Source of the DNA: a virus
Length of the DNA: 10,955 nt
Direction: 5' to 3' (one strand)
UHGV virus genome: UHGV-2150205
This document shows positions 2,288-4,331 of the stretch, piece by piece (positions within the stretch are counted from its first letter, which is position 1; each line of letters starts with the position of its first letter). Under the pieces are notes generated by a model. That model had not been told where the DNA came from. It did not search any database and was given only the letters and a program-made list of their open reading frames with translations. The position numbers and the translations under genes are program-made.

Positions 2288-2656
2288 ATGGTTGGAACCG
2301 CTATAGCAAGCTTTTTTGGGATGTTGGCAATCTCGACAATTTACGGCTTAGCGCATGCTGTTATTGCGAAATCTCTATCAGAAAAAATAAGCCAGGCTTG
2401 GGCGCATAGATCAGCTCGTTTCATGATTCTGGTGATCATAGCAATACAAGGGATATCTGCATTTATCCTCTATGGATCAAGCTTATACCTATTGTATCAA
2501 GGCGCGACATTTACGCCTTACACCAGTGATTACGGAACTCTATACGATGGTAGTGAAGACATCACTGTGGCTTGGATCGTCTTTGGTTTATCTATGGCCG
2601 TGTCTGTTGTAGCAGACATCATTAAGGTAATTCTCGTCTTAACCTTCGCTGACTAA
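2288..2656 (+). CDS. Small integral membrane protein, 122 aa with about three predicted transmembrane helices, immediately downstream of cI and probably co-transcribed with it (rex position). Function unknown.
   Basis: AAGGGG RBS 5 nt before the ATG at 2288; the track ORF starts at an upstream TTG at 2267. Hydrophobic segments are VGTAIASFFGMLAISTIYGLAHAVIA, FMILVIIAIQGISAFILYGSSLYLLY and ITVAWIVFGLSMAVSVVADIIKVILVLTF. Only 18 nt separate the cI stop from this start. Confidence 0.7.
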   Translation: MVGTAIASFFGMLAISTIYGLAHAVIAKSLSEKISQAWAHRSARFMILVIIAIQGISAFILYGSSLYLLYQGATFTPYTSDYGTLYDGSEDITVAWIVFGLSMAVSVVADIIKVILVLTFAD

Positions 2657-2787
2657 CCTATAATCCCGGCAGCAATAGCTATCGGGATCCACTTCACATA
2701 TCCCGCATAAAAAGCACTGAACAAGCAGACACCGAAAAAATAAATATCCTTTGTATTCATTTGCTTATCATTATTTCATCAAAAACA

Positions 2788-2829
2788 AATACCTTGGGTA
2801 TTTACACAATAAAATACCTACAGTATTCT
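2788..2829 (+). promoter_or_regulatory. OL operators and pL. Sites AATACCTTGGGTATT (2788-2802) and AATACCTACAGTATT (2813-2827), with -35 TTTACA (2801-2806) and -10 TATTCT (2824-2829) directed toward N.
   Basis: Same operator family as OR at the same 25-bp spacing. The -10 overlaps an operator, as expected for repressor control. Confidence 0.6.
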
Positions 2830-2874
2830 TTAGCCATCAGCAGGACGCTGGCAGCCAAACGGAACAGATTGGCA

Positions 2875-2916
2875 GGCTCTTTAACATTGATGGGATTGTC
2901 CCGCCGAAATGCGGGA
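2875..2916 (+). promoter_or_regulatory. nutL: boxA GGCTCTTTAACA (2875-2886) and boxB hairpin TCCCGC-CGAAAT-GCGGGA (2899-2916).
   Basis: boxA and boxB are identical in sequence to the nutR copy on the minus strand and lie downstream of pL and upstream of N. Confidence 0.7.
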
Positions 2917-3087
2917 ACCAAAGAGTAGTTGGCTTTGGGGTGTGGTGAAGGGTTCATGGACGGGAATATGTCGCACGTAAAGCGGCGAGGCCTGCGGGAC
3001 TATTCCCGAATTGAAGTCGGACGAAGCGGGTCGAAATGGGTCTCCCACCTACCACACCACCAAAGCTAATCATCTGAGGAACAGAAA

Positions 3088-3207
3088 ATGTTAGACATCA
3101 TGACCAACCCAATTCTCGGTGGTTTAGTTACCACATTCGCCATCTGCTTCGGTTTCACTATCTGGTCTGAAGTAGATGACTGGATGTGGGAACGCAAAAA
3201 CAAATAA
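3088..3207 (+). CDS. Leader micro-ORF, 39 aa (MLDIMTNPILGGLVTTFAICFGFTIWSEVDDWMWERKNK), a predicted single-pass hydrophobic peptide between nutL and N.
   Basis: GAGGA RBS 7-8 nt before the ATG at 3088. The hydrophobic core is ILGGLVTTFAICFGFTIW. It is below the track cutoff and coding status is unproven. Confidence 0.4.
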   Translation: MLDIMTNPILGGLVTTFAICFGFTIWSEVDDWMWERKNK

Positions 3208-3247
3208 TCATCGACACACAAGGATGTGTACCTTCCCGGAGGTCAAC

Positions 3248-3547
3248 ATGACAGTAGTCATTACATATCTGGCTGACGATAACGCCAGAAATCGCCGCAG
3301 AGCACGCAGACAGGCTCAACGTGAACAGGCAATGCAAGAGCAGCGACTGGCGCGAAAAATTGCGCTAAAGCTCTCTGGTTGCGTCAGAGCAGATAAAGCA
3401 GCATCACTCGGAAGCCTTCGCTGCAAGAAGGCAGAAGAAGTTGAGCGTAAACAGAATCGTATTTACTACCGCAAGCCACGCAGTGAAATGGGTGTGACTT
3501 GTGTTGGTCGCCAGAAAATGAAATTAGGCAGCAAACCACTTATTTGA
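3248..3547 (+). CDS. N: N-type transcription antiterminator, 99 aa, with an arginine-rich motif near the N-terminus (NARNRRRARRQAQ) and a lambda N-like C-terminus (YRKPRSEMGVTCVGRQKMKLGSKPLI).
   Basis: GGAGG RBS 6 nt before the ATG at 3248. The N-terminal MTVVITY resembles P22 gp24 and the C-terminus resembles lambda N (SKPGERGITCSGRQKIKGKSIPLI), both from memory. The track ORF (3176 start) extends upstream into the micro-ORF. Confidence 0.85.
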   Translation: MTVVITYLADDNARNRRRARRQAQREQAMQEQRLARKIALKLSGCVRADKAASLGSLRCKKAEEVERKQNRIYYRKPRSEMGVTCVGRQKMKLGSKPLI

Positions 3548-3555
3548 GGTGAGAT

Positions 3556-3807
3556 ATGGAATTTCATGAAAGTGCGATTTGTGATTTTCGCGCTAACGCA
3601 AATTCAGTAAAACCACAGCCAATTGCAGTTCTTTTTAAAACAATGGGTGCGTGGGCTGTTTTATGCTTCGCCTCTGATGACACTGACGCAAGAATGGCAA
3701 TAGGCCAAGAGATGGAGATGGACCCGACAAACGATGAATTCATAATTTATGGCGCTCCATCTAATTACTTACTTGATACCTGCAACATTTACAACAAGGC
3801 TGCCTGA
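3556..3807 (+). CDS. Hypothetical protein, 83 aa, first gene after N.
   Basis: GAGGTGAG RBS before the ATG at 3556; the frame is open and tightly packed after N. No family recognised. Confidence 0.6.
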   Translation: MEFHESAICDFRANANSVKPQPIAVLFKTMGAWAVLCFASDDTDARMAIGQEMEMDPTNDEFIIYGAPSNYLLDTCNIYNKAA

Positions 3808-3846
3808 TGGTGGCCTTTATTTTTGGCGTAAACAACAGAGGCTAAC

Positions 3847-4143
3847 ATGGAATTTAAAGGTACTGAAGGTAAGTGGGAAATAATGATGGATGGCGATGAG
3901 ATTAAAATCATCCAGGCAGACTCACTTGAAAATGGCGCAGGATGGCGTTCGTATATTGCAATCTGTGAGGAAGTTCAATGCATTGAAGATGCCAATCTAA
4001 TAGCGGCAGCACCTGACCTTCTCGAAGCACTTCAGTTATTACTTAAGCAAACCAAAAATAGAACAACGACAACATATCCAGAATGGTATGGAGCTGTTAA
4101 TAAAGGTCTCGCAGCAATAAGAAAAGCTCTTGGGGATAAGTAA
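3847..4143 (+). CDS. Hypothetical protein, 98 aa, containing the motif NLIAAAPDLLEALQ.
   Basis: AGAGG RBS before the ATG at 3847. I recall the LIAAAPDLLEAL motif recurring in enterobacterial prophage early proteins, but I cannot assign a function. Confidence 0.6.
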   Translation: MEFKGTEGKWEIMMDGDEIKIIQADSLENGAGWRSYIAICEEVQCIEDANLIAAAPDLLEALQLLLKQTKNRTTTTYPEWYGAVNKGLAAIRKALGDK

Positions 4144-4331
4144 TGAAAGTAAAAATAACTGCTTCTAATACCAGTTTTGTTAGTGTTGGTGATATTACAG
4201 AAGTAATAACAAACCATGATGGAACACAAGTTATGTGGTCTGATTTTTGTAAAAGATATGAGCGAGTCACTTGGTGTAAACTCGTATGGGGCGTCGAATA
4301 CGAAGAATTACCTGAAATGCATGACGAATAA
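4143..4331 (+). CDS. Hypothetical protein, 62 aa; its start overlaps the upstream stop (TAATG).
   Basis: Stop/start overlap with the preceding gene and AT-rich composition. No family recognised. Confidence 0.55.
   Translation: MKVKITASNTSFVSVGDITEVITNHDGTQVMWSDFCKRYERVTWCKLVWGVEYEELPEMHDE

Follow-up and report, generated by a model that had tools for sequence, protein, structure and literature searches.

The virus genome UHGV-2150205, a stretch of 10,955 nucleotides (nt) hereafter called the window, covers the immunity and early-left part of a lambdoid prophage and reads in the pL direction. Within its N leader lies a micro-ORF, a very small open reading frame (ORF) which opens with an ATG at 3088, closes with a TAA at 3205-3207 and translates to MLDIMTNPILGGLVTTFAICFGFTIWSEVDDWMWERKNK. 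The comparative sequence evidence set out below establishes this micro-ORF as a true protein-coding gene on which purifying selection acts, and its behaviour is that of a small mobile cassette. We consider it probable that this cassette-borne gene encodes an immediate-early, N-independent inner-membrane protein which acts on the host envelope.

Coding evidence and protein family

The open frame taken by itself is not beyond chance: the window holds 150 ORFs of at least 30 amino acids (aa), and five of the 92 that begin with ATG and reach this length are more hydrophobic than the micro-ORF. What places the micro-ORF above chance is its conservation, together with the existence of protein homologues in unrelated phages. 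Some 48 prophage-type copies, drawn from Escherichia coli RefSeq genomes, from Logan, ENA and JGI assemblies, and from IMG/VR, reduce to 19 distinct DNA alleles which range down to 67% amino-acid identity, and every one of which retains the 39 codons, free of frameshifts and stops; in one allele the TAA has become TGA, its position unchanged. An ATG with GAGG or GGAG 6-10 nt upstream is likewise present in every allele, despite differing leader surroundings. Ratios of non-synonymous to synonymous change (dN/dS) against the window fall between 0.05 and 0.50 (Nei-Gojobori; the 16 comparisons having any synonymous change); the copy at locus L010, for example, differs by 16 synonymous and 12 non-synonymous changes (dN/dS 0.055). 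Variable sites at the first, second and third codon positions number 16, 10 and 32 of 38. The initial annotation had listed a chance ORF among its explanations and had named conservation of the frame as one of the matters to check; retention of frame, length, start and Shine-Dalgarno sequence in 19 alleles, with low dN/dS and a match to a PHROG family, disposes of that explanation.

Only two copies are broken, neither by a point disruption: in P0006, a defective prophage, a large deletion runs from codon 22 of the micro-ORF to the erf gene, and P0005 is a rearranged contig at 2.4-fold coverage. At locus L055 (2501-2675), such a deletion fuses codon 22 to the region just upstream of erf and takes out N and the other early-left genes between, leaving an N-less and presumably defective prophage.

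The product matches PHROG family 7482 (phrog_7482; E 8.1e-25, 87.5 bits), its residues 1-39 aligning to profile positions 1-39 of 46. Homologues of 45-46 aa, with 34-41% identity, were found by tblastn and alignment in virulent, non-lambdoid phages of the genera Mooglevirus (Sf13-Sf19, Michonne and Mordin; Ounavirinae) and Avunavirus (Av-05; Vequintavirinae), the tblastn E value being 0.02 alone and 1e-6 within candidate stretches. These homologues are annotated as hypothetical, save that Sf18 gp86 is named a 'putative membrane protein'; the Av-05 gene is Av05_0034. No change is seen across both subfamilies at M1, N7, P8, G12, E28 and D31, and hardly any at L10. The virulent and prophage forms share the motif ML[DE]I.[TK]NPIL.G, a single hydrophobic helix and a tail that is aromatic-basic with SE[IV][DS]D, and the virulent members, too, are early-looking small genes of enterobacterial phages. 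The prophage form differs in its length (39 aa versus 45-46) and its tryptophan-rich tail, DWMWERKNK, and is promoterless within the pL/N leader. In the virulent phages, by contrast, the gene comes with a sigma-70-like promoter, a promoter-like TTGCAA-17-TATAGT being found approximately 40 nt upstream of the homologue in both genera (Sf18 and Av-05). These sites are at L007 1433-1461 and L009 1439-1467, and the occurrence of the same hexamers in two virulent phage subfamilies suggests that a promoter-plus-gene unit may have moved between them.

A profile search of all 1.84 billion representative proteins returned 13 matches, two of them weak, low-complexity repeats and 11 in the family, the latter either called with extra N-terminal sequence or present as truncated or rearranged copies. 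In the Escherichia albertii record P0003 the micro-ORF is called with a spurious N-terminal extension of 22 residues. Searches with the product against Pfam yielded only TrbC, under threshold at E 0.064, and those against NCBIfam, PADLOC and PDB sequences nothing usable.

Hydropathy and structure prediction agree with the initial description of a single-pass hydrophobic peptide. The best 19-residue Kyte-Doolittle window scores 1.74 (residues 9-27), with 2.6-2.7 for the virulent-phage homologues, and AlphaFold2, run on the family alignment, places a helix at residues 2-6, a break at Asn7-Pro8 and a long helix at 8-38 (mean predicted local distance difference test score, pLDDT, 85). The product opens with a short turn (MLDIM), its helix is capped by an invariant Asn-Pro pair, and its tail, SEVDDWMWERKNK, is acidic-aromatic-basic. 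A transmembrane helix is predicted at residues ~8-27, and assignment as a single-pass membrane protein is supported by these models. Counts of lysine and arginine, 0-1 on the N side versus 3-4 on the C side, suggest an N-out/C-in topology.

Locus layout and leader stem

The micro-ORF was originally described as sitting in the pL leader between nutL and N, behind a GAGGA ribosome-binding site, and mapping of the locus bears out both statements. The features are as follows, with coordinates in the window and strand where assigned.

1554-2270: cI-type repressor (phrog_4; Peptidase_S24 and HTH)
2267-2656: hkaS-like ORF directly downstream of cI, homologous to HK620 hkaS (phrog_6534, E 3e-78)
2801-2829, plus strand: pL promoter, TTTACA-17-TATTCT, from a promoter scan; overlaps the OL operators and is identical to the annotated pL/OL1 of HK620
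2876-2915, plus strand: nutL, comprising boxA GCTCTTTAACA (2876-2886) and the boxB hairpin CCCGC-CGAAAT-GCGGG (2900-2915)
2931-3066, plus strand: structured leader element, with a closing helix of 16-17 bp, GGCTTTGGGGTGTGGTG / CTACCACACCACCAAAGC, around a variable interior
3067-3074, plus strand: direct repeat TAATCATC (8 nt), copy 1, read from the sequence, at the left junction of the cassette
3076-3080, plus strand: Shine-Dalgarno sequence GAGGA of the micro-ORF, with the ATG 7 nt further on
3088-3207, plus strand: micro-ORF, 39 codons and TAA, predicted small single-helix membrane protein of PHROG family 7482
3205-3212, plus strand: direct repeat TAATCATC, copy 2, which takes in the stop codon of the micro-ORF
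3216-3229, plus strand: conserved motif or small hairpin ACACA-AGGA-TGTGT, located after the stop of the micro-ORF and ahead of the Shine-Dalgarno sequence of N
3238-3547, plus strand: N gene with its own Shine-Dalgarno sequence GGAGG (3238-3242), ATG at 3248 and stop at 3545-3547
3796-3826, plus strand: intrinsic-terminator-like site from a terminator scan, tL1-like and the first of the pL operon

The nutL site is base-for-base that annotated in HK620, and its boxA aligns with that of lambda. N is of the phage 21/HK620 type (phrog_271, E 5e-37), and its start at 3248 agrees with both the N annotation of HK620 and the call made by the NCBI prokaryotic genome annotation pipeline (PGAP) in strain E200086 (locus L001). 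An ATG at 3176 is merely the first start codon of a mechanically delimited ORF, and N does not start there; the overlap between the 3' end of the micro-ORF and an upstream extension of N, as proposed in the initial annotation, is accordingly replaced by a gap of 40 nt. Upstream of the terminator-like site lie the micro-ORF, N and an ORF at 3556-3807, and the promoter scan detected no promoter-like site between pL and the start of the micro-ORF. The N-terminal segment of the hkaS-like ORF is strongly hydrophobic, and from its position this ORF would share a transcript with cI in the lysogen; it is a candidate lysogen-expressed membrane or exclusion protein.

The 136 nt at 2931-3066 form a multi-branched fold of -57.5 kcal/mol (z = -3.8), the closing helix of which, GGCTTTGGGGTGTG.../...CACACCACCAAAGCT, is homologous to the stem of the lambda N leader in alignments with lambda and HK620. 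In lambda this stem serves as the RNase III site, as reportedly described by Kameyama et al. (1991) and Wilson et al. (2002). The order of elements is also that of the lambda leader, and in lambda and HK620, as in the window, a translation start falls approximately 20 nt past the stem. In the former two it is the start codon of N; in the window, by contrast, the micro-ORF begins 21 nt past the helix and so occupies the slot of N, while N begins 160 nt further downstream, preceded by a small hairpin and by a second Shine-Dalgarno sequence. Alignment with lambda supports the earlier statement that no ORF is found there between nutL and N, and the same is true of HK620 and phage 21. N/Nus-mediated translational autoregulation of lambda N was reportedly described by Wilson and colleagues in 1997 and 2002. 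In lambda, N and the Nus factors assembled on NutL repress translation of N across a 'highly structured' leader (PMC5725501).

The closing helix, GGCTTTGG.../...CCAAAGC, is kept among lambdoid prophages (the window, L010, L020, L030, L044, L045 and L047), around an interior of unrelated sequence that ranges from ~20 to ~250 nt across loci, an arrangement reminiscent of a landing pad on which the RNA cargo varies. A tRNA-like, RNase P-like or tmRNA-like element at 2931-3066 was considered and rejected as a general explanation, the helix being the homologue of the lambda N-leader stem. The tRNA lead had come from a PGAP 'tRNA-OTHER' feature, an ARAGORN call of tRNA-Pro(tgg), and apparently compensatory acceptor stems ending in ACCA; this ACCA belongs to the helix whose homologue is the lambda stem. 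ARAGORN calls no tRNA in the window and only one interior variant elsewhere (L002, L003, L038 and L040), Rfam returned neither a tRNA match nor anything else, and L010 lacks the CCA. In the called variant (L002 1421-1502, corresponding to ~2948-3049 in the window), the interior annotated as tRNA-Pro(tgg) or 'tRNA-OTHER' has canonical D and T arms, an anticodon arm ~8 nt above the canonical 17 nt, and a sub-threshold score against the Rfam tRNA model. Interiors of this type may represent a tRNA-derived insert within the N-leader stem.

Cassette structure and distribution

Compared with HK620, the window has an additional segment of ~160 nt which comprises a Shine-Dalgarno sequence, the micro-ORF and a small hairpin, and is edged by the direct repeat TAATCATC; HK620, which lacks the micro-ORF, has a single CAATCATC directly ahead of the GGAGG of N. 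The repeat is compatible with gain or loss of the cassette via microhomology recombination, and is missing from the variant with a P22-type N, L002. The micro-ORF precedes at least eight types of N, including those with the arginine-rich motifs of phage 21, P22 and H-19B, in at least four junction contexts. At L042 (1501-1680), where N is H-19B-like, it falls in the interval from boxB to the leader stem TTTGGTGGTGG...CCACCACCAAAG rather than after the stem, and from this differing placement we infer more than one point of entry for the cassette within the leader.

From the stop of the micro-ORF to the ATG of N, the distance is 37-57 nt in 20 of 21 flank types, the remaining type having no detected N start. 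Eighteen of these 20 combine a gap of 37-40 nt with the conserved hairpin, and two loci, with gaps of 52 and 57 nt, have other structures. In most alleles the hairpin reads GCACA-AGGA-TGTGC, with a Shine-Dalgarno-like loop (AAGGA), and it is absent from HK620. Although 93% of its alignment cells are paired, there is a single covarying pair, and the element is kept mainly at the level of sequence; one covarying pair makes an unconvincing case for a selected structure.

The cassette is present in 31 of 5426 complete E. coli genomes, among which 1872 match some part of a 911-bp leader/N query. A DNA-level search of the GenBank phage collection found no isolated phage that carries it, returning only 30-nt flank matches, and neither a protein-pattern nor a DNA-pattern scan detected a copy in species-representative genomes. 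In its compactness and self-containment, its presence or absence between homologous flanks and its many different neighbours, the cassette resembles phage morons and other accessory cassettes. Classical morons, however, bring along a promoter and a terminator and are active in the prophage, whereas the present cassette lacks both elements and would be expected to stay silent in the lysogen.

Proposed role, alternatives and significance

As the micro-ORF lies after pL and before the first terminator-like site, its expression would be immediate-early and independent of N. The first pL transcripts made after infection or induction would carry it with no need for N antitermination, and in the lysogen it would be repressed, a schedule that we read from the anatomy of the locus. 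The peptide would then act early on an inner-membrane target of the host, in a takeover, exclusion or anti-defence capacity. Because the family is also independently promoted in non-lambdoid virulent phages, it is most likely that the peptide itself has a job on the host. Kil (47 aa) and CIII (54 aa) of lambda are likewise very small early-left products that act on host machinery, and the cIII and kil genes lie downstream in related loci; unlike the micro-ORF, however, they are located past tL1 and hence are N-dependent and delayed-early, and they are neither transmembrane nor similar to it in sequence.

Several observations weigh against assigning the host-directed membrane protein proposed here. 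PGAP left the micro-ORF uncalled in all five of the RefSeq loci inspected, and feature lists imply that it is uncalled in all 31 E. coli genomes. The phrog_7482 family is small and confined to phages of enterobacteria, so that nothing on function can be transferred from it, and no literature was found on the peptide motif, the PHROG identifier or N-leader ORFs. The unpaired probability of the Shine-Dalgarno sequence of N varies between 0.13 and 0.63 across N types, with differing pairing partners. Finally, an antisense frame which shares wobble positions with the micro-ORF (window 3066-3221, minus strand) is stop-free in all 19 alleles.

This antisense frame speaks for a rival account, in which the micro-ORF is a non-coding by-product of a conserved RNA element or the real gene lies on the opposite strand, an account also in keeping with the silence of PGAP and with an internal hairpin, AUCUGGUC/GACUGGAU, that recurs in folds. 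Because the two frames share wobble positions, third-position variability alone cannot pick the strand. In the antisense frame, however, neither start codon, Shine-Dalgarno sequence, length nor end is conserved across the 19 alleles, whereas the sense frame has all four everywhere, and the tblastn homology also runs in the sense frame; on these grounds the sense strand is chosen, and the openness of the antisense frame probably follows from the hydrophobicity of the sense frame. Nor can an RNA element explain protein-level identity to annotated genes of unrelated phages whose DNA has diverged, and an Rfam search finds nothing, such that we regard this account as scarcely credible. A membrane-damaging toxin, whether type I-like or holin/pinholin-like, which depolarises or permeabilises the inner membrane, is very unlikely. 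The size and shape are fitting, as type I toxins (Hok, Ldr, TisB and ZorO), holins and pinholins are also short, with one hydrophobic helix and a charged tail, and many small hydrophobic-helix peptides are toxic on overproduction. Against this, a consensus scan of 2500-4300, which may miss such a site, found no antisense promoter or antitoxin RNA signal nearby, the nearest minus-strand promoter-like site lying no closer than 4100; a weak minus-strand terminator-like hairpin is present at 3232-3213. The product matches no toxin or holin family in Pfam, NCBIfam or PADLOC, and its tail, with a net charge from acidic to neutral, is not strongly basic. The holin-like role raised in the initial annotation also sits poorly with the position of the micro-ORF as first cistron of the immediate-early pL transcript, with cI, the hkaS-like gene and N as neighbours and no endolysin, spanin or other late lysis gene adjacent; early collapse of the membrane would, moreover, harm the phage.

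The initial annotation had further proposed a leader peptide that couples translation to N expression. In its strict form, a regulatory upstream ORF would mainly control N, through coupling, through melting of structure at the Shine-Dalgarno sequence of N or through insulation from nutL repression, and the peptide would be incidental. Such a role could account for the constant place of the micro-ORF just ahead of N across N types and for its start replacing that of N beside the leader stem; it also recalls the regulation of lambda N via nutL and the structured leader (PMC5725501). In the minimum free energy fold of the window, moreover, GGAGGUCA of N pairs with codons 5-8 of the micro-ORF, leaving the Shine-Dalgarno sequence of N with an unpaired probability of 0.23. 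Purifying selection on the peptide, with N7, P8, G12, E28 and D31 invariant, and the stand-alone, promoter-driven homologues of virulent phages outside the lambdoid group nonetheless make a purely regulatory role decidedly improbable. Predicted sequestration of the Shine-Dalgarno sequence by the micro-ORF, considered as a conserved device, gave an inconsistent picture across N types; the downstream hairpin is nearly devoid of covariation; and the place before N is equally explained as the sole N-independent immediate-early slot on the pL side. What stands of the earlier proposal is a possible secondary effect, in that ribosomes finishing the micro-ORF may influence translation of N. The N/Nus-nutL repression known for lambda N would, from the arrangement of the leader, fall on the micro-ORF now in the slot of N. 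A dual-function cassette, which combines an immediate-early membrane peptide with rewired autoregulation of N, is unlikely on present evidence. Were it true, N/Nus repression of the micro-ORF would yield a brief pulse of peptide shut off by N, and the displaced N would either escape autoregulation or need ribosomes on the micro-ORF to open the pairing of GGAGGUCA with codons 5-8. In that case the cassette would amount to a naturally occurring, mobile element that modifies the N feedback loop of the lambda type.

To return to the proposed immediate-early membrane protein, its family was already known as an uncharacterised PHROG and as hypothetical genes of virulent phages; its placement in the N leader is unusual. 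With it, a conserved and routinely missed gene joins the lambda-type immediate-early region, among the most closely studied regulatory regions in biology, and a practical lesson follows, in that PGAP-style annotation overlooks the gene in the E. coli genomes which bear the cassette. Pairs that differ by presence or absence, such as HK620 without the cassette and similar prophages with it, offer a ready system for establishing the role of the peptide, and are equally suited to asking how N autoregulation responds to which cistron comes first after nutL, and at what distance. More broadly, the supposedly 'non-coding' N leader is able to carry cargo, and a shared early membrane protein of 39-46 aa ties temperate lambdoid phages to virulent FelixO1-like and rV5-like phages, which suggests that its target in the host envelope is a general one.

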